A stretch of 64,000 nt of DNA from Botryllus schlosseri (Eukaryota): assembly GCA_051294905.1 (NCBI GenBank), contig CM119372.1:31746001-31810000 (forward strand), read 5' to 3'. Both the position numbers and the translations under genes were made by a program. How positions within the stretch are numbered: position 1 is the stretch's first letter; each line of letters opens with the position of its first letter. Under the pieces are notes generated by a model. It worked only from the letters and a program-made list of their open reading frames with translations. It was not told the origin of the DNA and searched no databases. Shown in pieces: positions 19,643-44,138 of this stretch.

Positions 19643-20035
19643 AGTAGTAGTATAGATCGCTCGTGATGTGGCAGGGGCTCTTATGGGCGGGGTGGTGACG
19701 CGCCTGAAAACCGGGGGTGGTGATGCGCCTTTTTAGACCCCCCTTGCGGCGGTGATGCGCCATGTGTTCTTATGGGTGCGGTCGTGATTCGCCTTTTCGG
19801 GTATAGGCTGCGGCGGTGACGCGCCTGAAAACCCGGGGTGGTGACTTGCCTTTTTTGCTATAGGCGGTGGCGGTGATGCGCCATGTATTCTTACGCGATA
19901 TGTGGTGACTCGCCATGTGTTCTTATGGGTGCGGTCGTGATTCGCACTTTCAACCATCTCTCGCGCGGTGTTGAATAGTCACCAACAATAACCGCACAAA
20001 CGGAAACGTGGCTTGCAAGAGGATTAAGCAGTGCG
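19643..20035 (+). repeat. Left terminal inverted repeat (about 393 bp), GC-rich, with about 10 GGTGAYGCGCC-like iterons
   Basis: Reverse complement of 49965-50539; one mismatch seen in the outer ~225 bp. Confidence 0.95.
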
Positions 20036-21670
20036 ACCTATATTCCGAATGACCTGCGCGCTGAATTGTTGCCCATACAGCTGTGTGCTACTATCGATTA
20101 TTACACTAGACCAGTCAGTGTGAAATAGTTTGATCGTAAATTATGATATATGATGTCGTAGTTTAGTCGTGTCAAATGACCGATCGTGTTCTCTTTCCTC
20201 GCTATTGATTGCTACCTGAATAATACTTTCGGCTTATTCGCTGTTTCGCACCTACAGAATAGTCTGCTGTTCACAGTCGCAACAAGAATCACAAGTATAC
20301 ACATTATACATTCATTTATTACTCTGAAATCAAACTCTTCACAAAAGCACGTACAATCGTATCATTCACTTTTTTATCATCGCCAAAATTATCCAAGTAT
20401 TCCTCGGTTGAAAACCCTTGAGCTCTTTTTATCAAGAATGCGATAGCATGATCTCCACACACATCCGAAGTTTTACTCTGTAACTGTTTGCCAGTCACAG
20501 AAAATTCATCTGGCTCCAGGAATTGGAATATCTGAGGTTTTAGTGGTCCGAAACCTAGTGAATCATGAAAATGAGTATCAACGTGTCAATTTGTCAACTT
20601 GAAATGAAACTTACTACACAGCTCAAGTTGATTCGTATCTGAATGTGTTAATTCGGTACAATTCTAATTATTTTGAGAAATCTTTTCGTGATCTTTTGAC
20701 TCGACCAAAACCCGAATATTACTGACGCCGACTTTCAGCCACATCGAATTATTCGCACATTCCGCGCCGCTGTTGTCACACTTATAGAATCAATACCAAC
20801 TATAATTCTACAAGAATCAAGAATCACAAGTATGTACAGTTATTGTCTTTATCAACATGAAATCAAACTCCTAACAAAAACACGCATCTTATCACTAGTC
20901 AACTCTATCATGAAAATCCTCGAGTCCTTATCATCAAAAATGTTATAGCGCGGCGTCGGAATCCATTCGTGGGATGTACTAAAGGTAAATCCAGATAATC
21001 CAAAATGAAATATTTGGACTTTGACATAGTCTGAATTGAAATATATTGACAAACATGACTACCAACTTTGATCCAGTCACATTTCAAGATCATACTTTGA
21101 AACAATCCTTGAAACTTACAACTCTATTCACGACTGAGTTTTCCGTTTATCAGTTTCAGTAAATACTATCGCGATATTTTAATGTGTTACTACACACAAT
21201 AGAATCAATCAATGAAATAACACCTGTTGTAAATATTTCTAACTTGACAACCACTTGTGCATACCGCGATCAAGTTGCGACGCGATGAGTTAAATCGGGA
21301 TATTTCAATCTATTTGTCGAAACCTTGAACAAACTATCAGGTTATTTTTTGTTGTAATCAAGTGAACGGAAATAGTATTACGTCTCAACATTTTAACATC
21401 TGGAACAAGTGCAGTATATGCCCGCTTCACTCGTGTGTATACTTGACGTCATTCATCATGATTCCCCATGATCATTTAATTCAATCGCCCTCTTCTATCA
21501 CTTAAACCTTTTTTCTTCTTATTCTCTCGTTTTTCCGCACGAGCTTAAAAAATGCTGACTCAGCATTTTTTCTAGTTACGAGGTTTCAGTTTTTTCCGTT
21601 TACTCCCATTTTAGGAATTTTGTCCGTTTGCCCTTCCTATAATACTTATTTACACTCTGCCAAAAAAGCT

Positions 21671-22114
21671 TTACATCTTTTGTATGGCTGTGGGTGGTAT
21701 AGGGCCTTCGCACAACACCACTTCTTGTACGTTTTATTGCAGCAGTACGACTCCCTAATTCCTTATATCTGCTGCTTTCATGCAAATTACCACATTTCGC
21801 TTTTTTCTTATCTTCGTTATCGTTTTGGTCAAATGAATGAATCTCCTGTTCATTCGTTCAATGCCTGCGGACATTATCTGTTTTGCATTGTTTTTAGTCG
21901 TCATGTGGTACAATATCTCGTTGCCTTTATATTTACAGTGCGGAGGAGGCAACCCTTTTGTATGTCCATGGGCAGCCGCCAAACCATAGTTCGAGAATAT
22001 TACTCTATCTCACCTTTTCATGACGTTCTTGATTTCTTCAATTTTCATTTGCACCCCCATTTTCTTCTTATGACGCCGCAAATTCCTTTCCAGGGATGAT
22101 ATCTTTCCACCGAG
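21671..22114 (-). pseudogene. Tpt1/KptA-like RNA 2'-phosphotransferase domain with three in-frame stops
   Basis: One frame reads ...LRRHKKKMGVQMKIEEIKNVMKR*DRVIFSNYGLAAAHGHTKG...EILYHMTTKNNAKQIMSAGIERMNRRFIHLT...RNVVICM...RN*GVVLLQ*NVQEVVLCEGPIPPTAI. This follows the KptA motif order RAxxGHS, LYHGT, IxxxGLxxMxRxxVH, V.L...IPP..I. Confidence 0.7.
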
Positions 22115-22334
22115 TCATTACAAAGATCATGGAGACAATGAGACTCTTGAGTTCCGTCTTAACGCTTGGACTGGTCCCTTGTTGTGGTAACTTGGCCAGC
22201 CATTGGCCAATGTGAATCTCGTGATGAACGGGGTTTTGTTGTTGGTGGAGAGAGAGCGAGGTTCTTCGTTGTCAGCAGAGATTTCCTACCTATTCAATCT
22301 AACCTCTGATCTCGGCGTGTGCCCACGCCTACCG

Positions 22335-23087
22335 TCACGCCAACGGACTCAGTCGCCGCCGGGGCCCTGTTTCTGGGGAGACGTGCATCCTAAAATCCCC
22401 AGACTCCTCGTCGGACATGACCGGACGTATATCCGGTTGACCGGCAATAGCTGCTTTGTTTGAACCTTTTGGGACAGTAGTCATTACTGTGGCTGTCGTT
22501 ATGCATCTATGGGCCGAATTATTACAGGTATTCGGACAAGTGCACCCACGAGAGCATGCAGGACCAGTTTTCTCGTGCAGGTCCTCAATTTCGCCAGCGG
22601 GCATTGCACGCTCGACGTCAGCTGTAGCTGTCGCCATGCATCTATGGGCCGAAGTTCTGCAGTTCTTCGGACAAGTGCATCCGCGAGAGCCTTTGGGACC
22701 AGTTTTCTCGTGCAGGTCCTTTTTTACGCCAGCGGGCATTCCACGCTCGACGTCAGCTGTAGTGATCGCCATGCATCTATGGGCCGGATCTTCACAGTTA
22801 TCCGGACAAGTGCATCCGCGACAGTTTACAGGACCAGTTTTCTCGTGCAGGTCCTCAATTACGCCAGCGGGCATTCCACGCTCGACGTCTTCATTAACGG
22901 TGTCAGCAGGCATTCCTGTCCCGACACCAACAGTTTCCCATAGGTTCTGTGTGACATTAGTTGCGATTTTCAACTCGTCGTTCGCACCAGTGGTGATTAC
23001 CATCTCGGTACTTGCGCCAGCGGCAACGGCCAGCGGCGACGGCCAGCGTGCCGGCTCGACGCTTATTCGATTTGCAGCTTCCATCAA
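22335..23087 (-). CDS. 250-aa ORF with three 45-aa Cys/His-rich tandem repeats, in frame with the upstream protease-like segment
   Basis: 135-bp period (CTCGACGTC at 22611, 22746, 22881); each unit has the pattern HEKTGP..xRGCTCP..C...AHRC. Confidence 0.65.
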   Translation of the reverse strand: MMEAANRISVEPARWPSPLAVAAGASTEMVITTGANDELKIATNVTQNLWETVGVGTGMPADTVNEDVERGMPAGVIEDLHEKTGPVNCRGCTCPDNCEDPAHRCMAITTADVERGMPAGVKKDLHEKTGPKGSRGCTCPKNCRTSAHRCMATATADVERAMPAGEIEDLHEKTGPACSRGCTCPNTCNNSAHRCITTATVMTTVPKGSNKAAIAGQPDIRPVMSDEESGDFRMHVSPETGPRRRLSPLA

Positions 23088-23668
23088 CCCATCATCGGTT
23101 ACAGTGTCGCGAGGACTGCTTCCGACTTTGGGTACGTCCCGTTGATATTACGAGATCCCATCATGTAGCGTTACTCAAGACAACTCTTCATTTGCGTTAG
23201 ACGATGTTCTCAACCCAGTCCCTATGCTAGGTAAGTGCTGTACTTGATCAATCCATTTGAAACCAACGGTTGCAAATAGAACCGGTCGTCCGTCAAAGAC
23301 AATTATTACCAAGGAGCTAACGTGGGGGAGTCACCCATACCACATGTCTATGGGTATGGGTTGCCGCTCCTCCAAGCGTTGTGTGTGTTTGGTTTTGACG
23401 ACGTTCTTCAAATTGAGGACACATCCCGTGTCGGCCCAGATTTTCCTACCTGTTGTTGTATCAACTAAATACAAAAGTTGGCCGCCGAACCATTCCGTAA
23501 AATCTGGCTACAAAGGGTCATCTGGTGTATCAAGAAATGTAAATAGGGGCAGGGAATCATTATGTACAGTTTTTGTGTGTTGGGGTAATAAATTATCTGG
23601 GAGCTGATTTACCGGATCAATCAGCTCCCGCGAGCGATTTTCGAGAGTCGAATACTTTGCTTCAGTTC
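23088..23668 (-). pseudogene. Retroviral-type aspartic protease remnant, in the -1 frame relative to the Gag-like ORF
   Basis: Reads RKIWADTGCVLNL (DTG codons at 23424-23432)...IPIDMWYG*...VIIVFDGRPVLFATV...LPSIGTGL. Four in-frame stops at 23508, 23331, 23175 and 23148. Confidence 0.55.
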
Positions 23669-25450
23669 ATCATCCGTCCAATATGAAGTATCATATCGAA
23701 GTGGATGATCAGGGTATTGAGGTTCTGTCCAAGCCACTTGACTATTACCTCGGGATGAGTGTGCAAGCGGTAAAGATGGCTTTGTGTCACGCATATCCTT
23801 TGTTTCCAGGTTCTTAGGGCGCGTCTCTTGTTCATCCAGAAACTCGGAGTTCCAAACAAGTTGTAGCTCCTCCGCAACGTCCCGCCAGGTTTTCTCTTCT
23901 TCCCAGCCTCGCAACATCAATCTAAGCGCTTCTGGTAGTCGCTGCCGTAGATTTCGGAAAAGACGTAATCCATCCGGATTTTTCTTAATTTTACTATCCA
24001 TGTCTATTTCCAGTTGCTTCAAGGCGCTATTCAGCAGGGGTAGCGGCTCATCCTCCCAGCGATAATTTCTACGGAAATCCCCAATAATCTTTTCATCATT
24101 TACCAAACCCTGGGGATTGGATAAGGAAAGAGATTGCATCACCGATTCCCATTCTGCTTCCCCAGAATTGGTATTAAAAAAATTTCCAAGTTGGGTAGCA
24201 TGCTTGTGTCTGCCAGCCGCTCGCAATTTCTTCTGCATCGCATTAGCCAAAATAACATCCACATCCGTATTTCCGGGACCGTGGCGTATTCGTCGCATTG
24301 AATTCTCCATCCATTTTAGCAGTGGCATGTCTCCAGGGTCCATCATAAGCTGAAGCATTTCTTTTTCTGACTGGATTTTAGCCGACACATTGAGTAATGG
24401 GGCCGAAACACCAGAATACTCGTGTGGCTGTTGCTGCCGTTGTCGCCTAGTCCTTCCCCAATACTCTTTTGGAGTGGAGGTAGCGCGAGGTGTATTAGGA
24501 GAACGAGAGCTATCGGAAAGTTCCTCATCGAGAGATTCTTCCGTGGAATCCTCAGAGCTTGCACCGCCCCGTAGGGACCTTATATTATCTCTTATTTCTT
24601 GGGAAATCTGTTTCAGTCTAGCATGGAAATCGATTTCAGAACTTTCTGCATCAGATTGTTCCTCGCCTGGACTATGAAAGGTCACCCGTCGGGAAGCGCC
24701 GTCCGCATTTATACGGGATTCTGTCTCCGAATTTCGGCGTTCTTGCCAACCCTGATATCCCCTATATTTACTCGAGGAACTTTTTGCAGGTTCCGTCCTT
24801 GTTCCCCCCGTTGCTGGGTTTCCATCTTTTTGTTTGGCGCGTGCACCACTGCCCACATGGAAACATGGAGTCGTCCCTATTCGAGAGTCTGGCAATGAGG
24901 TCGAATCAGAACGTGGTAGCTTAGGATAGACGGCCGTTACAGTATGACAATCCAGACCCTTGCGAACCGTCATCGTTGGTCCTTGTTGTACGTTACTAGA
25001 CTGCTGCTCAACGAGAGGAACGTAAGCCGGAGGGTCATATTCTGGTGCAGTTGGAGCTACTGTCAAAACGGGAGATTGGATGCTATCTCGTGTAGCCTGT
25101 GCATGCGACTTTCCGAGCTCAAATTCTGACGTAAGGATGTCATTCAGCACGTCGGTGGAGACCTTCCCGCTAACTTTTGTTGTGGCATCGCAAACAGCTT
25201 TGAGGTCCGCTTGAGCTTTTCGAACCTCTTTCTTTGCCTTTTCTAACCCTTTCATGGTCTCCGGTAGAGCTGTCTTTACTTCTTTTAATAGCTCCGTTTG
25301 TTCAGCCACATCTTTAGCAAGTTGTCTTTCTTGTCGCCGTACATCTTCATGGCGTTTTTGTGTTGCTTTAAGCAAGGTAATGCCCTGTTTAAGTTCATTT
25401 GTCGCTTCTGACGACCTTTTCCTTTTAAATGCTTTCAATATTCTTCGCAT
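23621..25450 (-). CDS. 609-aa Gag-like protein: N-terminal coiled coil, PTAP/PPxY late motifs, Ser-rich linker, helical C-terminal domain
   Basis: Long intact ORF; PTAPEYDPPAY at 25022-25054; position directly upstream of a DTG protease-like frame. No CCHC knuckle. The Gag identity is an inference. Confidence 0.6.
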   Translation of the reverse strand: MRRILKAFKRKRSSEATNELKQGITLLKATQKRHEDVRRQERQLAKDVAEQTELLKEVKTALPETMKGLEKAKKEVRKAQADLKAVCDATTKVSGKVSTDVLNDILTSEFELGKSHAQATRDSIQSPVLTVAPTAPEYDPPAYVPLVEQQSSNVQQGPTMTVRKGLDCHTVTAVYPKLPRSDSTSLPDSRIGTTPCFHVGSGARAKQKDGNPATGGTRTEPAKSSSSKYRGYQGWQERRNSETESRINADGASRRVTFHSPGEEQSDAESSEIDFHARLKQISQEIRDNIRSLRGGASSEDSTEESLDEELSDSSRSPNTPRATSTPKEYWGRTRRQRQQQPHEYSGVSAPLLNVSAKIQSEKEMLQLMMDPGDMPLLKWMENSMRRIRHGPGNTDVDVILANAMQKKLRAAGRHKHATQLGNFFNTNSGEAEWESVMQSLSLSNPQGLVNDEKIIGDFRRNYRWEDEPLPLLNSALKQLEIDMDSKIKKNPDGLRLFRNLRQRLPEALRLMLRGWEEEKTWRDVAEELQLVWNSEFLDEQETRPKNLETKDMRDTKPSLPLAHSSRGNSQVAWTEPQYPDHPLRYDTSYWTDDELKQSIRLSKIARGS

Positions 25451-25458
25451 AGTACTCT

Positions 25459-25827
25459 CTATTGACTAGAGGAAGTACTGTTGACAAATATTAGATCAGG
25501 CAAGGATGCGTTGAAAAAGACTGTAGGTCCTGGCGGCGTATTCGTGGCTTTGACGTAAGCAGTGGGTTCGCTGCTATTTGATCCCAAAAATACGTTCAAC
25601 AGATTAGAAAACGCTCCAGGCGATACGTGCAGATAAATTGCTGCCAATATTATCAGGAGAGATACAGACGAGGAAAGCAAGGATACAACAAGTACAAGTT
25701 TTACGATGGTCGTCTTTGAAAGCATCGATCGGTCAACGTCTGAACACCGGAAGTATGCCCCGTACTGGCCACCAATTTTGTTTTTATAGTGCAGCTCCAC
25801 AACGATTGTTATGCGAGTAGTCCACAC
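25459..25827 (-). CDS. Putative small single-pass membrane protein
   Basis: Hydrophobic run IVKLVLVVSLLSSSVSLLIILAAIYL followed by NSS, NAS and NST sequons; stops 8 nt before the Gag-like ATG. Confidence 0.4.
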   Translation of the reverse strand: MWTTRITIVVELHYKNKIGGQYGAYFRCSDVDRSMLSKTTIVKLVLVVSLLSSSVSLLIILAAIYLHVSPGAFSNLLNVFLGSNSSEPTAYVKATNTPPGPTVFFNASLPDLIFVNSTSSSQ

Positions 25828-25996
25828 TTGTTCGGGATACTTCGTAGGACAAAGTTGACACTATTTGCTCTCTTGTGTAGTACTGACGACGTTCGTAGAT
25901 CTGTAGATGTTGATTTGAGATTTTTCAAAGTCGTAAATGTTGATTGAAGTATTCCGTAGTTGTAATATTGTCTTGTTTCCAAACAGCCAATGACCA

Positions 25997-26302
25997 TTAG
26001 GTCCAAAGTTCTAAGCTAGCCCTCGATACAAGTAATCTGAAACCCTTAATACAACCAAATACTCCAATCATTATCAACCAATTATGGACACAAATATAGG
26101 GCGCTTCTATAAATATCGTCCCGTACGGGTCTATCAGAATACGAGTAAAAGCTAGGCCTATAAATATGTCATGCATGATTGATAACTTTTCAATACTCCA
26201 AGGTTGGTTTACACATATAAATGTGAAGGCCTTTCCTGCCTCGACACACAAGCATATGCAATATACAAGAAACATGCCAATAGATGTTACAAAAAAATAC
26301 AC
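25997..26302 (-). CDS. Putative small multi-pass membrane protein
   Basis: Three hydrophobic segments; overlaps the next co-oriented ORF (25809-26006). Confidence 0.3.
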   Translation of the reverse strand: MYFFVTSIGMFLVYCICLCVEAGKAFTFICVNQPWSIEKLSIMHDIFIGLAFTRILIDPYGTIFIEAPYICVHNWLIMIGVFGCIKGFRLLVSRASLELWT

Positions 26303-27010
26303 TCAGAGTTCAAGTTGACCAACTTGCAGACTCGTGTATTATAAGAGTTCTCCAGTCTTCCAGCTGCAGGTATCGAACCGAAATCAGTCCAGAAAGCGAC
26401 CCCTTGTTGAGTACTTTACGTCATAAAGTACTTTCGTGTCGATTCGGGGATCAGGCATTCCAACAGTAGGCGGCGTTTGTTGAGGGTTCGTCGTAGGCAG
26501 AGATTCCGAATGCAATATCTCTATACTCTTGGCTCTTTTCATCTTTAGTTCATCGAATTCATGGAGCTATTCCAGCACATTTCATTTGGCTTTTCCATTA
26601 CTGTATACTTGTAACTTCGGCTAGCAGTCAATCCCATTTTATTGCACTGCTTTATTTCTGTATACTTTGCAACTGTGGCAAGCAGCCGATCCAATCATTA
26701 TAAGGTCAAGAGCTTCCAGGGGTACATGCGAACATCACCCTTCAATGCCGAAAGACTTTAGTACCTCCCGCAATCAATCGTCAATATACTGTTTTGTGGA
26801 TATAGTATGATACTGGATGCTTCGTTTTGGGCTGTGTTTCGAGAGTGCTGGACTGCTGGTGGCTTTACATTGGTAGAGCCAGAAATTAGCCAACACTAGA
26901 GGACACATTCACGATGTCTGCATTGGTAGTCATTGGATATTACAACTGAATGTACAATTCATGTGGGCACCATACATGGCATGGATATGCAATATGCACA
27001 CACACATATA

Positions 27011-27217
27011 TTACATATACTTCAGCTCACTGCAAAAGTTCGCATACATGGAAAAATGATGGCGCCATTTTCGGTAAAGCAACCTGATGGTAAAGCTAAC
27101 TACTAACATGCATACGACAATTCCAGATAAGCACAAAGTGCTATCAACACAGCGGCCAAATGTACAAAGCATATTCGACTGTTCATTCATTAACCCATGC
27201 GCAAATTCGAAATACAA
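27011..27217 (-). CDS. Putative small membrane protein
   Basis: LCLSGIVVCMLVVSFTI followed by a basic RLLYRKWR stop-transfer-like segment. Confidence 0.25.
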   Translation of the reverse strand: MYFEFAHGLMNEQSNMLCTFGRCVDSTLCLSGIVVCMLVVSFTIRLLYRKWRHHFSMYANFCSELKYM

Positions 27218-27947
27218 AATGGCGGCATTTTTGTTAACTCAACACGATAGTGAGTATCGGCAATTATAGAGTTCGAACACGCTCTGCAAATTTAGCGTTG
27301 ACGCAATCGATCTCATGAATCGAAAGCGTGAACCCTTGGACTCAATTTTCGACACATCAATTTCGCAAAAAAGATGTGTGTACTTTTCTATTGTATATAA
27401 GAATTTTATTTTAATTTTATTGAGAGTGATTTAGGGTGATTGTATCAGTTGCTTATGCAACGGCAATTCATCTTACTATTGACTCATATGGGCAGTCAGG
27501 TGACTACAAAAGTCACCGCTAATCTTTTCAGTTACTACGGCTTTATTCATAATCTAACATTATGATGCCTTACCTTAACAATTTGAAGGGACAATGTAGG
27601 CATTCTCTGAAATATAAGATTTGCAGTGCCTAGGTCAGAGCTTAAATCTACGACCTTTTACGGTGTTTAGCTGCAATCCATGAAGTGCGGATTTATGCGT
27701 ATGAAAACCGGTGACACTGCGATTCGAGTATGCAAAGGCACGAACTAACACTGGCGTTTCCACGCTACGACGTGAAATTCATCAGAAAATAATCTCAGGA
27801 ATACATGGTAGCACTAAATGGACACATTTGTGTAACACAATAGTCACCGAATGACCTCGGTGCTCCGCGAGCACTTGGATACATTGCGATTATCGCAATA
27901 CAGACTCCTCGGATGCATTGCCGTCCAGTTTAAAATTGTATTAAACT

Positions 27948-28687
27948 TTACCGGAATAGTAGCCTATAGCGGCGACGGGGTTCAGATATAGGTTTGAATA
28001 TATTTTCAGTTCGAGTCGCTATTTGTTCTTCCTTAAGATTTTTAAATATTGCCATCCCGTAAAGTTTATTATGACGTCCTACCGACCAACTAGCAAATAT
28101 CAAATTATCCTCATCTGCTCGTTGGCATGACGTTATCGATAGGTACGTCTCTTTACTGATTGTATCGTTCATTTGTTGCATCATGTGTCGTCTTATGAGT
28201 TCGTACATTATTATACGAGCGTTCACTTTTTGTCGAGAGTCGATTTCATACAATATAACGCTTGTGATAAGTTTTCATCTCGTATGCCACTGATAGTCTT
28301 TTCTATATTCCAAAGACTTGTGGTACAGAAGGTGACCCCATTTTGTTCTCAATTTTACTTACATATAAGTAAATACACGACATTTAAAGCGCGATATGAG
28401 AAAATAACATTGACGTCTATTTCAGCTCAGTGCCCCTACATTAATTTAATCAAAAGATGCCTAGCGCAAAACTCATGTAAATCTTTGTTATCTATATCAA
28501 TGAATACGTATAACTAAAACTGCCTCCAGCAATTGTTCCATCATTTCGATTATTTCGGAGGGATCAATTGATTGAGACAGCTCCCGTCACACAGATTTAG
28601 GTACCATGCCCATATTTTCTTTAAAATTAGCAATGCTTCACCTAAGGGAGCTTTAAGAATGGTACCAATACTATAGTCAAGAGTCAT
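27948..28687 (-). pseudogene. Decayed coding-like segment of unknown function
   Basis: ATG at 28687, protein-like stretches broken by stops, then a 101-aa ORF in another frame; co-oriented with the cassette. Confidence 0.25.
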
Positions 28688-31600
28688 AGTAGCTTAAAAA
28701 CATTGAAGTGGATCAATCACTTTGCGTCTTGAGCGTAATTGTTATTATTCAACTATTATCCGGCTCGCAGCGTAATATGAGTTTGACAGTACAGGAAGCT
28801 ACCTGTGCGATTCGTCCTCGTTGTGGCAAACGCTTGTTGTTGAATTACTTTGCCGCAATGTTTAAGTTTGGACCGACGAGGTGAGTTGTATGTAGAAGCA
28901 TAGCTAATTTTTTGAACTTACAAGTTAGTGTTTCTCAACCGGGATAAACGTAATTCTTGGGATATACCAGAATTTGCAAAGGGTGTACCTTTCCAATGGG
29001 ATATATAGAGATGTACCAGACCCGGATTACCCTGAGCCGACGGACAGCTGTCACCAAGGTTGGTATATGTACAATGTTGTCTCAAATGTAATACTGTATT
29101 CCGCTTAGTTGCGATGTCACAAGTAAATCGTCAGCCTAACCCAATGGTCTAGTTAGATGTTGCAAAGTACATACAGTTAGAAGACATGTTTCAAGCTAGT
29201 CATTTATGCGATAGCTCAGATTTCCTGAAGCGGTATTCCCTGCCTGACGTAAATAAATGCCGTAATGTAGTGAATGCAGCAATTGAAGTGACGCAGCCAG
29301 TCAAGATTAAAATAACTTCCATATTGACATTGAAATGTGTTTGGTTTAGACTGCCGATTTCTTAATCCAGTATTACGTCATGTATCTGAAATTAATTTTT
29401 CGTTATCATTGAGGCAAATTAATGACAATAGACTGTGTACAGCGGTCCACAATATGAGGTTATTGACACTATTCTCGCAGCTCAAGTGCAATCCTGGACT
29501 TGCGCGTGGTGCAGTGCAAGTATGATATCAGAATTGTCAAGTCGTCTAATTTCACTAAATTAGAGCGAAACGCAAGTGGTCTAATTCTGATCCAATTGAT
29601 TAATTAGTTATCCGCGGCCAACCGCTATAGCATGTGTCAGTGTAGCGCCAAAGTCACTTCTGCTAGTACGGAAAAGTATTGTCGAGCATGTGCGAATAGA
29701 TTATTCCGACAATAGAAACAACAATATGAAACCAAAATTAATTTCATTATTTCGTCGCGATCTTTTAAACTCACATATCAAGTCGCCGAGCGCGCATGAC
29801 CAGCGTTTGCGTGAGCCCTGGTTACTAAAAAACAAGGCAAGTTTAGTATACAGATCATACTCTTTATAGCGACATGCTCCGTGTGCAATATTTGTCATTA
29901 AATCCGACTGCCTCGCATTTCCTAAGGCTCATTTTAATTTTACGGACAAAGTTATTAGCGTCCATCTTGAATTAGTACTGAGTATTTAGGATTTATTTTT
30001 GTATAGGATAAGTGTCAGTGAAGCGGGTGAATATTCAGTAATTTAATTTCATATCATAGTTATAAATACAGCGTTGATTTTCTCTCTCCCCTTTATAGGA
30101 AAGTGAGCATCAGTTTCTTTGTACTGTAATTTTCCTAGACGTCGTTTTATTTAAAATGTGACCCTATATCTTATATATCCAGTTGTTTTAGCCAAAGTAA
30201 CCACTTCTATTTATTCAAATGTGACATTAAATGTATCAGGAGAATAAGAATAGACACTTGTTACCGATACCGATCAGATCATCGAATCATAGATGTTTGT
30301 ATTTTCGAGAAAAGTTGCCATTTGTTATTTCACAGTTCATAGCATCATGCAAGCATAGCTACTTTATTTAATACTAGAACCGGGAAGACATCACTCCGCT
30401 TCACTGATTCAACGACCCTGGCAATTTCAACGCAACAATGCCGGCGATTCAGTTGGTGAGGCAGAATTGTATTATCCGTTTTCATCACCGTGTCTAACAC
30501 ACTCCGGGTTTGTTGTCTTAGTGCACCATGCCATTTGGAAAATAATCTAGGGTTAGCTAACCTGTGTAGGCTAGCTATATGTAATCAAACAGTATAGAGT
30601 TGATTCTGTCACGCCCCACAAGTGAACCCATTAAAAGTTATGTTACATTTTCGGTTGCAAGAAAGCACCTGATTGGTTATCATTGATATATTATATTCTA
30701 CCCAGATAATATTCATCTCCTATTTCAACCTCCTTTGTGCTATGACGTCACATTAGAACAATACGATGTAGAGAACTTATATCATAGCAGTACCGCATCC
30801 TTTACAAGCAGCGCAGTACTGCAGATGGAATAGTATAGTAAAACGGTGGTTATAATCTTGTGACGTTAACTATTGGGCCGGACGATTTCTCGTGCTGGGT
30901 CGGGTCCAGCCACTGGTCTATCACTATGTGGCGTGGGATTGTATAACTAATAACATCACATATTAACGAGGGTTTTAATATCTTCGGTCAATTACCAAGC
31001 TGACAATGAACTGCTATAGTTGTTGTCTTAACCTATTCACTTCCTATCCACTACTAGTTTCCATATGTTAAACTTTAGGTCAAATTAAAACAACCATCAT
31101 TATTGTCCGTATTGTAGATTTTACTCAAAGTAATTACAGTATCAATTCATAGACTCTCTGCGATATTCTAATGTCTTTTCATCGATTTCTTCCATTCAAC
31201 TGTGTTATGATGTTATATATCCTATTTCGTCGTATACTAATGCCCTTATCCAACCTTCATATAATAGTAAATGTCTTGATGATGTTGTTTATAAGCTTTG
31301 ATCAACTTGTCATCAACTTTAGTCAAATTCTTTTCAACTCCTGTCAACCTCGTAGCCAAATCATGCCTTTCAGCTCTGTAGAGTGAACTGAATTTTCTGG
31401 CCTTATCCTTCGAGTTATATTCAGTTTTGGGCGGAAGGTCGTTGACGTGCATGCATCCACCCCCATCACCACGAGCAATTTGCTATTTTCGTAAAGTAGG
31501 GGCTGACGTACATCCGAACATTCATCAAGCAAATTTTTGTCGCTATCCTTCGAACTACGGCATGATTAGGCCCCCAATTACAGTCAAATTTCACCCTTTT

Positions 31601-33120
31601 TCTGCAGTTAATTATTTCCTGTGCACCAATTTTCCACTGCAGCGTTTCCTTTCCCACCATTATTTATGGCCTTATTGTGCATGAGTTTTGCAATGGTGTG
31701 ATCAACCCCCCAATTGGGGTCGTATTTTGCCGTTTCTGCTAAATTTTATATTTTCCTGTGCGTCAACACGCCACTATAACATTTACATTCCCACAGTCAT
31801 TTATAATTGCTCTTTGCAAAAATCACACCATCTGCTTCCAAATTTTGCAAAATAATGCATTACACAATCCTAATTTGGTTTAGAAAGCACAATCCGAAAT
31901 TTTCTCAGTTACATCAATTATTTCTTCTCTTGTTATGCAATTCGTAGTTTTGCTAGTTATGTAATTCTTAATTTTACTTATTACGCAATTCACATTTTTT
32001 TTTTCTGCAAGCCGCAATCTTCGGCCAGTTCGTGCGAATTAAATTTACTTTCCACAGACTTAACCAGGGCCGAAGTCAAAAAATCTTCTCTATTTTTAAA
32101 AACCCGATGTTAGACTTGTAACAATCACTGTTAACTCCCTAGCGCCCGAAACTACTAAAACCTACTTCATTCAAAACGTGGTTTTTCGTGTATATAGTGC
32201 AGTCATCATCATATGTGTAAGATTTTGACTCACAATATCGCTCTTTCACACATTATTAGTCAATCCAAGTTCTGCAAGTTAGCGGAAAACACCCCTGTTT
32301 GAGGCAAGTTGTCCGCAGAATCTGTCATGAGGTTTAGTAACTTTTCAAAGGGTCGTAACGAGGTTAGAACCTGGGTATCTTCATCCACGTTATTATCGCC
32401 AATGAAAGATGGCGGATAACAAACTGGTGGGCTCGACAGCAGTAGTTACCCTCGGAAGGTTAGGTGATTGAACCTTTCCTTGCTACGTAACATTTAGGTA
32501 CAACATGTTTCATAAAGCCATTTCTGCCGAGCACCATAATACAATACCAATTACCAAGGTAGATTAATTAAGTAATTGTGTTGTTATTTATCTGTTCCAA
32601 TATTCGAAGATAAATTTATATTTAGACTTAGATAAATTCAGATGATAATTACATTTTTTCGCGGCCGCAAAACTTCAACGTGACAGAATTCACTATGCCA
32701 CGACGCAATCGCACGCCTACACTGTCTCTGTGTCCCATAATTTTGACAAGTTATGCCAAGTACAACAACCTTTTTATTCAGTTATTTCAGAATGTGCATT
32801 TTTCTCGTGCCAGGCGTAAATGTTGCTATAGTAGGCCTACATAGTACACTCATAATGTGTGTGGAATCTGCGCAGTCCAAATTCAAAATAGGGTCGACAC
32901 CACGCAGATTAATTCTAGTTATTGTTATTGTAAAACCATGTACTTTTTTGCCTAAACTGCAAAGGGTAAGTTGTTGAGAGTTCGCATTCTACCATTTTGA
33001 GCTATATTACTTTATGGCCTTTCAACAGAATACCTATTCATAACTGCCTGCACCGCACAAGAGATTTCCGGTAATTTTTGTGGAAACCGGTAACACGCAA
33101 ACCTAAAAGTTTCACTTTAA

Positions 33121-33191
33121 CTCTTTCCACGCCGAGCTAAATTTGAAGACAATCTCTAGCGAACATATGGGGATACGCGGCGTCGAAAGAG
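33121..33191. mobile_element. 71-bp TTAA-flanked mini-MITE (piggyBac-like)
   Basis: TIR CTCTTTCCACGCCG / CGGCGTCGAAAGAG (1 mismatch); TTAA at 33117-33120 and 33192-33195. Confidence 0.7.
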
Positions 33192-34512
33192 TTAATTCAA
33201 TTATTGATCTTACGCGCAGTCGTGACTGGTGCTATGTACATATTGTTTTGTTACTGACATATGTCAGAATTACCACTCTTATTTGTGTACTCGAATGCAC
33301 GATGTAGCGCGCTGTATAATGCAATTTACTTATACTAAACTAAAGCCGCGAAACAAGCGGTATTCACTTCGTGTCGTTAGACAACAGTAGTTGTAAAAAC
33401 CAAATAGACAGAGGTGTTGGAAAATCAACTTACCCGACACAAAAACCTACCTACTGGTTCCGAAATATCTAATGCAAATTGTGATGCGGTATGCACGCAT
33501 AACCACCTGCATTCATGCAGCTTACAACACCGACCATGATAACAATTTAGAGTTGCTGTTAATACTTTTGTGCCACAGCTATTCACTCGCTAGCCAATAG
33601 TTAGAATTCACGAGTTAATGATAAAGCAATAAGTTACCGAATGTTTGGGGGACTAGTTTGGTAGACATTGGTGGGGTTACTTCTTAGTCACTGGGGCAAT
33701 TAAATTAACGACCATTACTTCAGCGGGCCTTTCAACATTTTTCTATTTATTAGCATATTCGTCAAGCAAAGTCCGCTACAACAGATATATTTTCCTTGAG
33801 CATTCAAAGCTAGTGTTTTCCGTAACTTTGTGGCTTGTTACATCACGCAATTCTACATTATAATGTCAGCTAATTTCAATTTGGATTCAAAAGTGCACAT
33901 TCACACTGTGTGCGTTCACCTTTGACCAAAAGTGATCGTCATACTGTGTTGTGAACACACACGTCTTCATAGATATGCCATTCCAACAACGTGCATATTG
34001 CGTAGCTTTGCACTGAATGCTTAATATGTTGCGATGTGGCAAATGGAGGTTTCAGAGCCTGCATAATTGAAAATAATATCGCTCAGACAGTAGACGGACA
34101 TAAAATTAACACCAACAATCTCCCCCACCTTCAAGAAATACGATTATTAATTCATTAGTTCAATTATTACGTCTTTTTTATTGACGATTTTGATTTGCTC
34201 TGCAAAGCAATAGCCGTTACTTACGTTTACTGGTTATTACGACGAGTGACACCCCTAATATATTTTCTAGTACTGTTTTTGCAGTACTTGGACAAACTCG
34301 ATATTCTCAGCCCTTTGTTATGTGCCGTGGTCGTTGCGAACCGTATTATTATTATCATTATTTGGTCCCTGGTCTAATCGTTGCAAATATTATGTTCGCA
34401 GTTGGCGTCCAGCTCTCCGTCACGTCGTTTCGGCCCAATGTTGTTGGAACATTCTGGCCATCTCCTGACGAAATGAATCTGGTTAATTTGGTACTTACCT
34501 TCCGACCTTTAT

Positions 34513-35010
34513 CTAGGGTATGGTAGTCCGCCCTGGTGCTAAAGTGTTTCTTGCTTGTGACGTAGTTGTTCGTTTCGATTTTCTGGCCACTTGTATTGTG
34601 TCAGGCACTTCGTCATGGTGTTGAGTTGTTGTTACGAGACGATTGATTACACGGATTGGTCGCGTATAGGGCTCAGTGTCGAACGTATTGCGCACCCGCG
34701 GTTTTAATACTGTACTCGACATTCTACGTAGCTCGGTCAGAACCGGGGTATTAATTTGGGATGATTTCATTCTACCTGAACTGAGCGGTCCAGACGATGG
34801 AACCGCGGCCGGAACCATGATCGCTACAATAACACCGCTTGTGGCTCGAATATTGACGTTTGGTCTGTTTCGATCAGGTGTCTCCTTGGAAATGCTTGTG
34901 GTGTTTATTCGTGTGACATTTGTGTACTGCCCCTGACGGACCAAGCATAGTACAGTGTATGTCCTTCTTTGACGGCCTGCGTAGATCTGCGTAGGCAAAC
35001 AGCACAACAT
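34513..35010 (-). CDS. Arg/Thr/Ser-rich hypothetical ORF near the right end of the cargo element
   Basis: 165-aa ORF with a TATA-like ATATAAATAG about 100 nt upstream on the minus strand (about 35106-35115). Confidence 0.3.
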   Translation of the reverse strand: MLCCLPTQIYAGRQRRTYTVLCLVRQGQYTNVTRINTTSISKETPDRNRPNVNIRATSGVIVAIMVPAAVPSSGPLSSGRMKSSQINTPVLTELRRMSSTVLKPRVRNTFDTEPYTRPIRVINRLVTTTQHHDEVPDTIQVARKSKRTTTSQARNTLAPGRTTIP

Positions 35011-35282
35011 GTGTGGACTATCAGATCCCTACCGCCATGTGCGGGGCTAACGTCGTTTTTCTCGACAACTCATAACTATACGATTCTCTCCTATTTGATC
35101 CCGTGCTATTTATATGGCAGGGTTATTTTTTTCACTTGTTCCTGACCAGACCTAGTGCTTTTTTCACCCTCATTTCAATGTACATGTAAAACACTTACTA
35201 TCCTACAACACACCCATTTTATGGTGTAACAACTATTGCCGCCTAGACCTCCGGGCACTTATTTCACAAGTACCTAACATCT

Positions 35283-38200
35283 TCCCATACACAAAATAGT
35301 AAAATACAAAAAAAAAACCTTGTCAAGTCAATCCGTTTGTAACTTACCCAACCAAAGCATAAAGTATCCTTATGAAAAGTAGACAAGACTACGTGAGTAA
35401 TCACCACAATCCAAAATCCATAGCAAGTTCGGTTGTATTCATAGTCCACCAACTCGTATTTTTATTCCACTGTAAAAGTCGTTACTATTCCGCAAGACAA
35501 AGAAATTACTATGTGGTATATTTTGTAAGACAAAAGTAATTACTTCTCAGTGTCGGCGACTTGAGATTAACATAATATGTTTGAGTATACGAGATTTGAC
35601 AGTCTGACCATCGTAGTTGAGAATTCATTTCTTACAATCGAACACAGGTGTTATATCAAAAATTATCATGATGTAAACATAAGGATTGACACATTGATTT
35701 GACATATGAGATTTTGTAATAGTTGATCAATACTTTATTATTAAATTATTTGCGTTAATTAGACCCGACGTTGTGGTAAATGTTATGACAGCAACAAACT
35801 TTTCAGTACCAATGTTATTAACATATTAAGCTGTAAAACTATGTATGTCTGAAATGTTCTTGATAGGAAAATTACTCCACCTTGGTAAAAATCACTATGC
35901 GTATCGCGGATATCAGAAAATATTTCCAGTAACCAAGACTAAAGATGAAACGACAATTTCGTTTGCTGATTAACAACCGGTACAATACTTTATCATCATA
36001 ATCCGCGGTGAGAATTGAAACAATTTCGCGCATTACCCGGTGTCAAGATATCACACTAGGTGAATTGACATACCACCGCTTGAATAATACCTAATCCGTT
36101 CGCACCATTTCACATACTTTGATCATTACAAAAGTAAATTGTTATATGTTTGTTAGATGCATCCAATTCAGTTAGAAATGTCTGGTGCACAACAATCGTA
36201 ATATCAAGAAAGTACTTGCTACACTGTTATTTGCTAAACGTGTTTTGCATTGTTGTTCATTTGTAGTATTGATTGAAATTGTTCTTGAACCCTCAAATAA
36301 TAATTCCTGACATGAAACCAAGCCGCTGAAAGTCGTTACCATCACGAAGATACAATGTGTACGATGTTTGTCAAATGTGTCCTACCTGGCCAACAGAAAA
36401 CAATTTTCACTCACTCGAAATGAAACCAATGTGACGGTCTCCATTCGATATTTTGTTTGTGTCAAATACTTTGCAATGAACACATTTGCGTGGTTGAGCT
36501 TTACATCATCAAGCTGTTATTTGTAAATCAAGATTTCGGTAAACTTGTAAATGTATCGTTTAACTAACCGACATTTAGTGATTGGGGAACATACCAGACG
36601 ATACACATCCATCTCCGAAATACTGCATTGATCTTAATTTCCATCATCGTGATAATCGAAGTACATTTCTTTCGAATCCGTAACAACCGACTATGACATG
36701 ATAAATTTTTTTGACAAGTTATGCTTAGAAGATTGGTTGCATATCGCGAAAAAAATAATATACCACTCATATTGATACTGTTACTCCATTGATCGATATT
36801 TTCAAACGAGTAAAATTTATTACTTGAGTTTCCCCGCTTAATGTAAATGAAAACTCAACCGTCTTTTAACATCACAAAGACATTGATAAAAAGTAGGCAA
36901 TCAAACACAACACTTTGTACGACACTAATTATTGTTCCACACATCTCATTTCATACTAAGTGTATACGAAAGATATTCATGACACATGAAAATATTCCCA
37001 TGCTACAAACCTGTACAATGATTGGTGGTGCTTTCAAACTGTTTCGATATCACAAGAACTTTATTGTCGGAATGGGTGTTCATGTATCTTAATAATCAAA
37101 TAGTTCAACACAGAACTAGTACGAACAGAAACATCAGAGTTGTTTACACAAAAGTTTGTATGCGTGCAGTATGCGAATACCATGTGTAAGTCGAGCACAA
37201 TTGCGGTATCCATCCGAGTTTAGTAACACAAATTTATTACAACGAGCCACGTAAACTTTCGTGAAAGAAAAGCATACTCACTTCCAGAGGGTTATGTCAA
37301 CGCCATAGCAGTACCCCAACAAGAAAGTACATATGTTTTCTAGTCACGGTCCTTACATCTTTCACATAGATCAATCTACTTTGCTAACGAAAAGTGCTGA
37401 GTCATCACATGATTGCCCTCACAACAAAACAGCTAGAAGATATTATCATACAAAAATATTACTAACCCTTTGCGCACCAGTGACAAATCATACAACAAAC
37501 ATTTTTTGTGAGTCGAATTGTTGTTCAGTGTCAAGTCTACCTGTTGAAACGTACATTAAAACAACACAGTCACAATTCAATTAAAACCACGGATCTATTT
37601 TCATTTCGTCACATACAGAAAAATAAATTTTCTTTCCCCAACACATACTTGTAACCAATCGCTTTCATTAAACACACAACTCCATAAAAGTATTTACTTT
37701 CTACAACACAGACATTCCGATGTAGTCAAGAAATATTTTTATTAATCAAAATCATCGATTTCTGTTCACGGCGTTAGTGTGTGCATTTCATACCTGTGGG
37801 TCCCGTATTAAAATGGACACGACACGACTGAATGAAAGGGGGGTAGAAGTCTATCACATCGATTTACATGTGGTCTTCGCTACGGTTTCAAAAAACGAAT
37901 CATCTATTTTGCATTGGTCGAGACCGAGCGAACCAGTTACATGTATTCGCGGTAATGATTTTGCTTGTCATATGCGAATGATAGGGTTACTGTCAAATCT
38001 ACATACAACAACCTTCTGGCACTCATAATAGCAATTTCATTTTCCGCCGCTTCGTAACTGTATACCCCCAACTCGGCTTTTTTGTTCATCGACAGCTGCG
38101 TTTAACAAGACCAACGACACTGAACCCACGACGTTTACCTATGTAAAGTTACCACTTTCACTTGGCAGTCCGTCGTTTACCTGGCTAAACATATCATTTT

Positions 38201-38610
38201 CACTTGGAAATCTATTTTTTCCCAGAGTAAGAAACCTTTTTCACTTGGAAATTTATTTTTTCCCTGGGTAACAAACCTTTTTCACTTGGAAATCTATTTT
38301 TCCCTGGGTAACAAACCTTTTTCACTTGGAAATATATTTTTCCCCGGGTAACAAACCTTTTTCGCTTGGAAATCTATTTTTCCCTGGGTTACAAACCTTT
38401 TTCACTTGGAAATATATTTTTCCCCGGGTAACAAACCTTTTTCCCTGAGCAACAAACCATTTTCACTTGGTGGTCCGTCGTTTACCCGAGTAAAAATATC
38501 ATTTTCCTTTGGGGATCTGGCGTTTACCCAGTGTAACAATACATCAATACATTTTCTCTTGGTCATCTAGCTTTTCCTAGAGTAACAAAACCATTTTCAT
38601 TTTGAAATCT
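35283..38610 (+). repeat. Inner part of the left palindrome arm
   Basis: Reverse complement of 38815-39460 plus 45569-48240. ORF 36847..37092(+) and ORF 46415..46639(-) are near-identical. Confidence 0.95.
38198..38470 (+). repeat. ~41-bp tandem array (about 6 good copies plus degenerate flanking units)
   Basis: Unit TTTCACTTGGAAATCTATTTTTCCCTGGGTAACAAACCTT. Confidence 0.95.
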
Positions 38611-38817
38611 GACAAACACACCTGACAATTTGATATTTTTGTATATTGTTACAACGGATAGCGACAAAATATACACCAACAACAACTCCAATACATTTGT
38701 GTAATCGCATATTCACTTGTGCTGATGCAACCCATCAAAATCATCGGTTACCCACATGCAATGTGTTGTTGTACATCGACGTTTATGTTTTTGGAAAATT
38801 GGACAATAGGCTTCGAT

Positions 38818-39140
38818 ATTTCCAAGTGAAAAAGGTTTGTTACCCAGGGAAAAAATAGATTTCCAAGTGAAAAAGGTTTCTTACTCTGGGAAAAAATATA
38901 TTTCCAAGTGAAAAAGGTTTGTTACCCAGGGAAAAAATAGATTTCCAAGTGAAAAAGGTTTCTTACTCTGAGAAAAAATATATTTCCAAGTGAAAAAGGT
39001 TTGTTACCCAGAGAAAAAGTATATTTCCAAGTGAAAAAGGTGTGTTATCCAGGGAAAAAATAGATTTCCAAGTAAAAAGGGGTTTGTTATCCAGGGCAAA
39101 AATAGATTTCCAAGTGAAAAGGGGTTTGTTACATTGGGTA
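38818..39140 (-). repeat. Inverted ~41-bp tandem array (about 8 copies)
   Basis: TCCAAGTGAAAAA recurs every 41 bp from 38821; reverse complement of the left array. Confidence 0.95.
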
Positions 39141-39836
39141 AACGATAAATCTCCAGAGGACAATGGTATTTTAGTGAGGTAACGGTGGACCACCAAGTGA
39201 AAATGATAATTTTACACAGGTAAACGTCAGTTGTCCAAACCAGAATGATATTTTACTTGGGTAGGTATCTTGTGTTCAACGCTGGTTGTGTGATTGGTCT
39301 TGTTAAATGTAGTTACCGAGTTGTACAATTATGAAGGGGTGGAAAATGAAATTGCTATTATGATCGTCAGAAGATTGTTGTATGTAGATTTGACAGTAAC
39401 CCTATCATTCGCATATGACAAACACAATCATGGTCATTAACTAACTTGCTCGGTCTAGATCAGTGGTTCCCAACCTGTGGTACGCGTACCACTAGTGGTA
39501 CGCGAAGGTCTTCCAGGTGGTACGCGAATAGATTCTGTTTTTAGTTCAGGCGGGGTTGAGTCGAAGTTTTTTTGAAGTCGTCGTCGTGGTCAGTTACACC
39601 GAAAAAACGAACCCCACTCGTTGCGCCCATGCACGACTTTCGATGCGATGTGAGCAAACGTATGCCACGCATCGACCAGCTCGTGCAGTGGTTCCCAACC
39701 TTTCTCATCTCGTGAACCCCTTGGCCAAAATGCAAGTCAAGATTTTCCCCTAGTAAAAATCAGCCTAATGAATAGGAAAGGCCGTTTTTTCCCCGCGAAC
39801 ACACCTGTTGATTGAAGAATGAGACGGGTGCTACAG

Positions 39837-42129
39837 TAGGGTTACCATATTTCTGTGATACAAATTCCGGGCACCCATTAGCGCCCACCAGCGGATTTAA
39901 AAATGAGTTATGACGTCACACTAGCAAAGCTTTGCTGATAGACCTGGGGGGGCATTACAAAACAATGCGGTAAATCAGAATCTCCGCCAGCGGTAACGAG
40001 CTCTCTCGAATGCGATTACCGCATAATGTAAAAATTGGTATTTCAAAACATTTTGCGGCCAGCTCACGCAAGAGCGCTTTGAACTCACGTAAACTCTCGT
40101 AATTCCAGACGCAACGCAACGTTTCGCAATGAACGCGCTAATTTGTGATTTCTTCGCCTAGTCGGCAATCTCAGTAAAAGATGACATCAAATGAGGACTT
40201 ATAATGCTGTGTGGTCACTGGTCAGCAACCATTTGTAATTTAGCTGCGATAATCTTTCACAAACAGGGAAATAGAAGTACCCTAATTATTTGTGGGATTT
40301 GATCCGAAGATAACAAAATTACAGGCGTACGGTACATTATAGTTTGTCTGCTTCAGGCCGTTGTGTCAAGTATCACGCGTACCGTACATTGAGTTTTAAT
40401 TTCGTGTGAGGATAAAGCTGGAGCAATACATGTATAACATTCTGGAAACATGGCCCTGATCGTAGTTCGCAACGACTTTACAAGCCTACCGAATCGGACT
40501 GAATGTAACCATTCGGCAGAGAATTACTTACTGACAAGTCGACCACATGATATGCTGGCCAAAGTTAAAAAGTGGATATCCAATAAATCTATTTTGACAA
40601 TAGATTCCTAACCTACCGAGGTTGGTAATCTATAATTGAACATTATAAAAGCACGCTTCCGACATAAAACTCAATTCCACGTTGTATTCATACGCGCCTT
40701 AAACGGCGTGAGGTAGCTTACTCAGTCTCCGCACGTAGTGGTCCGTATGTGAATTCAATTGATAAGCGCTATATATCGCCACTGCTTTATTTGGCTCGAT
40801 TTTACCAACAGTTAGGCTTACGAAATACGACCCAATTAGGTAACTTACAGGACATGCCCTTTTAGATCGATTATTGCCTCACTTCTTTACTATATTGAAG
40901 TAGAATATTAAGATTTTGCAGTTGAAAATGCTGCAATTTCCAGTGAGGATTCAACTCCGCCAGCTTGAAGCTAGGCGGTAAGTTAACGCGCGAAATCTAC
41001 GCTAATTTCAGTTTTGTAATACCGAACTTCGCGGATAGTGACGTTCGTGACGCAGATCGTTCACGTTTTCTCTCGATTTCTACGTTTTGCGGTAAGCCAA
41101 TGTCATCGGTAAAAATGCTCTCGAAGATATCGATATTGAGGGTTTTGTAATCGCGATTGTCCGTTTCTCTCGAATTGTGACGGTAAATGTTGATTCCGAA
41201 GTGCGGTAGTTGTTTTGTGATGCCGCCCCAGAGCTGGTCACGATCCGGTTCAGGAGTATGTGGCTGTGTGTTGTGTAACCGGATCTGGTTTTTATATGCA
41301 TCATGTCGTTAAATTTTTTGAATGAATTCTGTCAATAATATTGGTTGTTCGCTTGTTCCATATATTACTATAGATAGTTACTATACTCTCCGCCCACATC
41401 AGTTAGCGGCAGAGCTGGTGGAGGATGATGATGAAAATACAGGGAGCATAATTGTACATCGTCAAGTCCGATAAGATCGTTTATCAGTCTTATACCGGTG
41501 CGCACCACGGAGCTTTATAAAAAAACCCACATCCAGTGGTTTCCAACCTTTTATGGTCGCAACTCCATCTCCAATTTGAAAATGTTGCGTGGCCCAGATC
41601 AAAGTTTGACGAGCTGATTACTAAAAGAAGTCAGCACCTTTGCCCGGACTTACTCACGGGCTATATTGGAAGTTGATTATGTTTAACATATTCGCGAACC
41701 CCAGAATAAAGGCAAACGACCCCCACGTTTGGAACCACCATCTTTGAATAAAGCATTTAAACGGCATTAACGATCTCTAGGAATATGCCGTTTTCCTATA
41801 ATTGCGACTACAATTAGGCTTATTCCAGTAAATGAAGGTTGTTTTTATTTATATTTTATTGCAGTTTTTGCGAGGGTGTGGTAGTCTTCATACTAAAATC
41901 AACAAATGTAATGGTAAATCGCGCGCAGCGCGAAGAAAAATATCATGCATCTGCATAAATATTCCCATAAATAATGTTTTTATGTTGATTTACGAAAAAT
42001 TATGAGCCCACGTCGTCAAATCTTCAAAATTCCAGACATTTGGCTTATTTTAGAAATTCCTCCCGGACGCTAGTTTGAACAGTGAAATTCCGGACATGTC
42101 CGGGAAATTCCGGACGTATGGCAACCCTA
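39837..42129. mobile_element. Nested hAT element (TAGGG type)
   Basis: TIR TAGGGTTACCATA / TATGGCAACCCTA; TSD TGCTACAG at 39829-39836 and 42130-42137. Confidence 0.9.
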
Positions 42130-43409: not shown

Positions 43410-43607
43410 TATATCAAGAAGCGCAAGCTGAAAAATTGTGATATAGACAACATTGTCAGAATGAAGCAACACGGTGTGTCACCAGCAGTGTGCACACAAC
43501 TTCAGTGTTGTCAGCCAACAACCGCTGCTGTTTAACGTTCTTTCTCCATTCTTGGCAAGCTACTTAGTAAGGACAAACACTTTCTACCCGAAAATGTAGG
43601 AAAGTAA
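43410..43607 (+). pseudogene. hAT transposase C-terminal dimerisation-domain remnant
   Basis: QPTTAAV*RSFSILGKLLSKDKHFLPEN matches the PxTSxxxERSFS motif with the Glu mutated to a stop. Confidence 0.7.
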
Positions 43608-43755
43608 GCTATCTTTCGTTCGTTGTACTGCAACAAATTTTAATTATTTCCACCAGAATACGTAATGGAACTACTGGAATTCTTCATAGGGCCAGATTTC
43701 GTTAAAATACTAGTTTTTTCGTGGGCTTCTTGGAGGTACAGAACTTCAATATACA

Positions 43756-44138
43756 ATTGAATAGTATATTCATATTGAAATAAACCCGAATATTTTCGGC
43801 TGACACTCGTCAGGGGTAATCGTCAGCAACTAGTAGAGAATTGGAAAGAACATGGTATCTGAACAATCGTATCACAAAATATGACGTCACCAGCATGAAA
43901 GAGAAAGCGTTCAATGTACTATTTTTAGGTGGTACACGAACTCCTTTTGTTGACAGAGTTTTGGTTGGTGTATTTTGATAAAAGTCGACTCCAAGTCACA
44001 CAAATGACGTCATATTTTGTGATACGATTGATGATATACCATGTTCTTTCCAATTCTCTACTAGTTGCTGACGATTACCCCTGACGAGTGTCAGCCGAAA
44101 ATATTCCGGTTCATTTCAATATGAATATACTATTCAAT
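43756..44138. mobile_element. Penelope-like inverted pseudo-LTR pair with two hammerhead motifs
   Basis: Inverted ends ATTGAATAGTATATTCATATTGAAAT; minus strand encodes HLCDLESTFIKIHQPKLCQQKEFVYHLKI; hammerhead cores at 43784-43817 (-) and 44077-44110 (+). Confidence 0.75.

Follow-up and report, generated by a model that had tools for sequence, protein, structure and literature searches.

A retroviral-type gag block and a spliced-leader copy between Merlin-like ends in the genome of Botryllus schlosseri

We analyzed a 64,000-nucleotide (nt) window of the Botryllus schlosseri genome; the window is this whole stretch, and all coordinates are positions within it. The window contains a 13.9-kb unit that is a genuine insertion: its flanks carry an 8-bp duplication, and its ends are short inverted repeats. 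The left part of this unit holds a block of retroviral-type genes, headed by a DNA copy of the spliced leader that the host adds to its own transcripts (Table 1). The coding parts of the element are all read from the minus strand and fall within 26069-21704. In reading order, the leader is followed by a small open reading frame (ORF) for a predicted membrane protein, gag, a broken protease-like frame, a Cys-rich repeat stretch, and a broken domain of the Tpt1 family that ends about 300 bp inside the left end of the element.

An exact 8-bp target site duplication (TSD), TAACATCT, brackets the unit. By itself this 8-mer is not rare, with four copies on the plus strand and two on the minus strand of the window, and the weight for a real insertion therefore comes from the presence of an empty site. 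The flanks at 21338-21401 and 35278-37925 align unbroken, at 87.5% and 90.7%, with the reverse strand of 48299-45560, in the opposite arm of the palindrome that hosts the insertion. There, the TSD 8-mer is present once, with two mismatches. When positions 21100-35600 were compared with four sequencing runs (X1, X9, X22 and X24), joints that skip exactly 13,881 bases were found in three of them: in two X1 contigs (depths 1436 and 1673), in one X9 contig (depth 2158) and in four raw reads of X22. None was among the joints listed for X24. The terminal inverted repeats (TIRs) at the two ends are imperfect, yet a match of this quality (16/23) was reached by just 31 of 2,000,000 random 23-mer pairs from the window, for a length picked after the ends had been seen. 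A near-perfect 25-bp palindrome is also present at 21547-21571, about 150 bp inside the left end.

These ends resemble those of the Merlin/IS1595 superfamily, which has TIRs of 24-462 bp (23-29 bp in one species) with terminal 5'-GG-3' and TSDs of 8-9 bp. Merlin TIRs can be imperfect, with 12 mismatches in 26 positions in one family (PMC8101967). An earlier note, made from the letters of the sequence, had described a Merlin-like insertion with an exact 8-bp duplication, GG-starting ends that share TGCCCG, minus-strand coding segments, an empty site in the opposite arm, and a position nested inside a Polinton-ended element. Our analysis bears out this description in all but one respect, as the ends measure 23 bp and not 25 bp.

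Table 1. Features of the 13.9-kb element and its host palindrome, in window coordinates
Feature	Position	Strand	Remarks
Host palindromic element	19643..50539		Polinton-type AGTAGT ends; 6-bp duplication ATCGGG; ~17 kb without the insertion
TSD, left copy, 8 bp, TAACATCT	21394..21401		Exact match to right copy; empty site
Left TIR, 23 bp, GGAACAAGTG...TGCCCG	21402..21424	+	GG start; 16/23 identical to right TIR; 3' end of cargo transcription unit
ATTAAA, candidate polyadenylation signal	21475..21480	-	78 bp inside left end
Broken Tpt1/KptA RNA 2'-phosphotransferase domain	21704..22075	-	Pfam PF01885; internal stops
270-codon open stretch	22335..23147	-	Same frame as protease-like part; three 45-aa Cys-rich repeats (135-bp tandem, 22487-22889)
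Broken protease-like frame, putative	23150..23645	-	-1 to gag; DTG aspartic-protease-type motif near 23438; identity suggested by position and motif
11-bp hairpin, predicted -1 frameshift stimulator	23599..23629	-	Over gag stop codon; 101-nt stretch -23.4 kcal/mol, z -3.42, 1/200 shuffles as good
Gag, 609 aa, open	23621..25450	-	Basic N-terminus, coiled coil, PTAP/PPxY/YPxL at residues 133-178, two-lobed capsid domain ~360-545
88-aa ORF, predicted membrane protein	25459..25725	-	One strongly hydrophobic segment, three N-glycosylation sequons; stops just ahead of gag ATG
Perfect copy of 25-nt tunicate spliced leader	26045..26069	-	No GT donor directly after
Non-coding mosaic, no recognizable gene remnant	26070..35119		Multi-copy parts (~26.1-27.4 kb and 31.3-35.1 kb), lower-depth parts, nested repeats
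Inner copy of end motif	35120..35142	-	16/23 identical to left TIR
Right TIR, 23 bp, GGTACTTGTG...TGCCCG	35252..35274	-	GG start; pairs with left TIR
TSD, right copy, 8 bp, TAACATCT	35275..35282		Exact match to left copy

The gag gene is open in this copy, and its product lacks, through an in-frame loss, about 300 residues of its closest relatives, the CCHC zinc knuckle included. Two close relatives are 55% and 47% identical to it. A wider protein search gave 20 matches at E<=0.001, of which 19 are plausible relatives (24-68% identical); the other, P0013, was dropped as a low-complexity false match to a bacterial surface protein. Together, these proteins form a deeply diverged family. Scans of metagenome contigs and of viral contigs with Gag returned nothing, and Pfam named no capsid family for Gag or its relatives. 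The isolated Gag domain (201 residues) has a confident predicted fold, with a mean predicted local distance difference test score of 89, and in the VIA structure comparison 13 of its top 15 rows were retroviral or retrotransposon capsids at middling Z-scores of 5.4-6.5. The best were MOAP1 CA-like (Z 6.5, root-mean-square deviation (rmsd) 3.2, 89 residues aligned) and the capsid of murine leukemia virus (Z 6.2, rmsd 6.3, 175 aligned), while the VIA list for whole Gag was dominated by the coiled coil. Atlas features gave Retrotrans_gag at 0.93. These comparisons suggest, at middling Z-scores, that Gag has a retroviral capsid-like fold. The CCHC knuckle was found in eight of the 12 relatives examined, and the four without it are short pieces. 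PTAP, PPxY and YPxL are budding signals. All three precede the capsid in 4/9 testable sequences, the window Gag among them (0/3000 shuffles; eight short Gag sequences were skipped), and one further testable Gag has two types.

For the 88-aa membrane ORF, Atlas offered no informative look-alike. Downstream of gag, the -1 frame has four stops in 248 codons. Five Gag relatives (P0006, P0007, P0010, P0011 and P0014) terminate in L-N-Y, L-N-I or K-N-F immediately before the stop, tails that would be expected if a slippery frameshift site at the gag 3' end were common to all. The Cys-repeat stretch had no Pfam match, and a protein search with the protease-like/Cys-repeat frame found no homologue, which is a weak negative. 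Pfam on eight ORFs gave nothing above cut-off. The Tpt1 domain was recovered by PF01885 with E 8.7e-12 and 45.9 bits against a cut-off of 26 when stops were read as X, and it was the single match above the curated cut-off in a six-frame Pfam search of the whole element (E 6.8e-10). No relative of the Tpt1 piece was found among the longer proteins searched, again a weak negative.

About 320 bp ahead of the membrane ORF lies the spliced leader. The copy is identical at 25/25 positions to the ‘Chordata 1’ spliced-leader consensus (Table 1 of PMC3795323). The window has a single occurrence of its 24-nt core, and 0/100 shuffles contain it. RNA reads pile up at 26035-26069, and 1263 reads of X24 and 89 reads of X22 stop at 26069, where they run into what appears to be a template-switch adapter. 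On the other side, these adapter-ended reads run on into mixed sequences. The leader-matching reads are host mRNAs and not transcripts of the element; the element DNA itself holds a perfect copy of the host leader. We also found an X9 contig (depth 62) that joins the leader 5' edge at 26070 to 27994 via 18 other letters, which makes the leader 5' edge a junction in a second copy as well. Another X9 contig (depth 202) skips 27486-27966; the 481 skipped bases, which end 27 bases from the leader-joined point, are therefore likely to be an insertion particular to the present copy.

Spliced leaders are added only to RNA. A leader inside the DNA of an element therefore points to an RNA stage, and suggests that spliced RNA was an intermediate for part of the element. 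In dinoflagellates, DNA-encoded leaders upstream of coding regions have been used as tags of retroposition (PMC6050394). Here, a trans-spliced gag mRNA was probably reverse-transcribed and the product would then have recombined into a copy of the element. We consider it unlikely that the leader is the scar of a leader-headed long or short interspersed nuclear element (LINE or SINE), and give similarly little credence to a built-in mimic behind a TATA-like word, which is present 29 bp upstream of the leader. A SINE headed by the leader at this position is in itself unlikely, as the sequence behind the leader does not exceed gag in depth. A spliced-leader RNA gene at 26069 was rejected: the exon is followed by GG with no direct GT, the fold has a z of -0.31, and Rfam gave 0 matches. 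Nearby, at 26169-26221, more than 1000 single-cell RNA reads match about 34 bases and then continue in related but different sequence, with the joint stepping back one unit. The pattern suggests a tandem repeat that is expressed, with a unit of about 57 bp and a 10-letter word in common with the spliced leader.

The rest of the element is a non-coding mosaic. A motif scan of the window found no Merlin motif, and the six frames held no match to DDE_Tnp_IS1595; a missing transposase of this type is expected of a non-autonomous copy. The same scan did recover reverse transcriptase (RT) and integrase motifs in a neighboring long terminal repeat (LTR) element at 54-60 kb. Suspected BIR/RING remnants at ~26.6-26.9 kb and suspected envelope or transposase remnants at 31-35 kb were both rejected, since only the Tpt1 piece of the 29 pieces scanned passed the cut-off. 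Neither metagenome contigs nor viral contigs contained a match to a degenerate pattern of the ends.

Read depth separates the parts of the element. Summed contig depth, which is no copy number, was 7338 in X9 and 409 in X1 at 88 bp inside the left end, 2897-7670 and 399-1446 in the gag bins, and somewhat lower inside the right end (1534-3953 and 171-214). In parts of the middle the depth dropped 10- to 50-fold, to 106-165 in X9 and 44-58 in X1 in the lowest bins. Multi-copy status can thus be assigned to both ends and to the gag block, the left end and gag fall in one depth class, and part of the middle is near-private. RNA over the gag body was low (<=1.8). Single-cell reads accumulate over 21584-22067, and their bias between strands (7.57 vs 0.37) is as expected for minus-strand RNA, a pattern consistent with an RNA 3' end just inside the left TIR. 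Few reads were at least 99% alike to this copy (93/1694 in X22 and 173/2018 in X24), so other copies or host leaders are the source of most RNA reads.

The insertion sits in a high-copy host repeat, other copies of which are commonly without it. The terminal 229 bp of this host palindrome are 99.6% complementary and its inner arms about 91%, a difference that allows for, and does not show, movement of the host after the insertion. The longest host ORF in the ORF list has 151 codons, and no long ORF was found. Other repeats surround the insertion. An inverted-repeat element at 37955-39431, with 40-41-bp tandem arrays in both of its arms, lies in the left arm of the host. One repeat is present as diverged copies (62-75%), nested in the 13.9-kb element at 32318-32833 and outside it at 4574-5637. 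A separate and apparently young LTR retroelement occupies 54041-60067; its 254-bp direct repeats are 98% alike, and its minus strand has CCHC, RT and integrase motifs.

We favor, at a probability of roughly 0.6, a reading in which the unit is a non-autonomous copy, reduced by deletion, and belongs to a retrovirus-like family that uses Merlin-type ends for insertion. A deleted copy of such a hybrid family fits better than a single capture event because gag belongs to the depth class of the left end and to a deeply diverged protein family. Under this model, Gag and a frameshifted protease would once have built budding particles, and the family would have been inserted by a Merlin-type transposase acting on TIRs instead of an integrase acting on LTRs. 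The present copy would have lost its RT, transposase and envelope genes through internal deletion and been placed here by transposase supplied in trans. That a Merlin enzyme would replace integrase is drawn from the structure of the ends, no such enzyme having been found in the window. More tentatively, the element may be the fossil of a new retroelement class, in which a budding retrovirus-like particle carried a genome that was reverse-transcribed and integrated by a Merlin/IS1595 transposase via short inverted ends, with neither LTR nor integrase.

Several observations weigh against this model. The ends and the TSD are known from one insertion only, and TSDs of 8 bp are shared by hAT and Mutator elements. 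Six-frame Pfam, the motif scan and the scan of 29 pieces turned up no remnant of a transposase, RT, RNase H, integrase or envelope in this copy. Support for the capsid fold comes at middling Z-scores, and neither whole Gag nor the capsid domain had a Foldseek match at E<=0.001, although Arc and Ty3 capsids ranked 1, 2 and 5. Late motifs are missing from 2/9 testable Gags, and another 2/9 have a single one at chance level. The protease-like frame is backed by its position and one motif and had no match in Pfam, solved structures or the protein search. The depth classes derive from a measure that does not count copies, and among the contigs listed none reaches from an end into gag. Finally, the second junction at the leader comes from one contig of depth 62.

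The earlier note had correctly noticed that the unit has retroelement-like cargo and no transposase, and had taken it for a Pack-type transposon. In such a capture, a non-autonomous Merlin-like transposon would have taken up a processed, leader-capped RNA copy of gag and protease and amplified it as passive cargo. The absence of any autonomous gene from this copy, the interior built as a mosaic of depth classes, and the leader directly upstream of the cassette, a trait of retrocopies (PMC6050394), all agree with this. However, no poly(A) tract or second TSD was seen at the 3' end of the cassette, which reaches to about 300 bp from the TIR, and Pack elements carry host gene fragments, mostly of 1-2 kb (PMC6431247). 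With gag in the left-end depth class and its family deeply diverged, we regard Pack-type capture as doubtful, and less likely than the note had supposed. The region is full of nested repeats and gag is itself internally deleted, so large losses do occur here; an ordinary LTR retroelement could have entered a gene-less Merlin-type element by chance and later lost its LTRs, RT and integrase. We consider this improbable, as no LTR-type direct repeat was found inside the element even at relaxed settings, the terminal 100 bp are in the depth class of the gag block, and the Tpt1 domain occupies the place expected of integrase and the 3' LTR. It is about as improbable that the ends belong to another DDE superfamily, such as hAT or Mutator, or that the duplication is a repair microhomology. 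The TIRs are indeed only 16/23 identical and the TSD comes from one insertion, but GG termini with an 8-bp TSD fit Merlin, and repair is at odds with the paired end motif at both junctions and its inner copy, the clean empty site, and the multi-copy depth at both ends.

Gag-encoding retroelements are known to enter DNA by integrase and LTRs, or by a tyrosine recombinase. If our model of a retrovirus-like family with Merlin-type ends is true, a retrovirus-like unit with cut-and-paste ends of the bacterial insertion sequence (IS) type would represent another route of entry and would make the distinction between class I and class II elements less sharp. Confirmation of an autonomous partner would make it categorically new. 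The present copy is crippled, and what it adds is a spliced leader fixed within TIR-bounded DNA. Should the new class be real, this frozen leader, with a junction at its 5' edge in at least two copies, would directly attest to cycling through RNA trans-spliced by the host. The leader also provides a testable handle, as counts of leader-bearing versus acceptor-bearing copies could tell how often the family moves through RNA.

Each feature of the element has counterparts in known systems. Like the Merlin/IS1595 transposons (IS1016 group), it has GG termini, an 8-bp TSD, short imperfect TIRs and internal tandem repeats; unlike them, this copy is without DDE_Tnp_IS1595 and carries a retroviral-type gag block, a cargo that does not appear in the accessible part of PMC8101967. 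With Ty3/Gypsy elements (Metaviridae), the env-carrying errantiviruses (PMC13524379) and the Tor elements of Oikopleura (PMC4402516), it has in common the two-lobed capsid fold, a CCHC knuckle in its relatives, and a -1 protease-like frame behind a hairpin. In contrast to these, it has no LTRs, integrase or RT, and instead has TIRs, an 8-bp TSD and a 3' Tpt1 domain. The words ‘Merlin’, ‘transposase’ and ‘phosphotransferase’ do not occur in PMC13524379. In a search of the open literature, with subscription journals, Repbase and supplements outside its scope, we found no paper on gag genes between Merlin ends or on Tpt1 in a retroelement. The spliced-leader-tagged retrogenes of dinoflagellates likewise carry a DNA-encoded leader ahead of the coding region, which is read as marking retroposition, but the genes tagged there are host genes (PMC6050394), whereas here the leader lies inside a TIR-bounded mobile element of a chordate. 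Pack-MULEs and other Pack-type elements are also bounded by TIRs, lack a transposase, are moved in trans and carry foreign cargo. Their known cargo consists of host gene fragments, mostly 1-2 kb and <7 kb (PMC6431247), in contrast to the ordered 4.4-kb retroviral-type block in a 13.9-kb unit described here. Teratorn, a fusion of piggyBac and a herpesvirus, comes closest as a precedent, as it similarly places virus-type structural genes between cut-and-paste ends (PMC5601938, PMC10175614, PMC6431247). In Teratorn, the viral part is a DNA herpesvirus of ~180 kb and the enzyme is piggyBac-like, whereas here a retrovirus-like part is paired with Merlin-like ends. The element works like a non-autonomous Merlin that carries a retroviral-type block, and this copy is an autonomous member of neither class.

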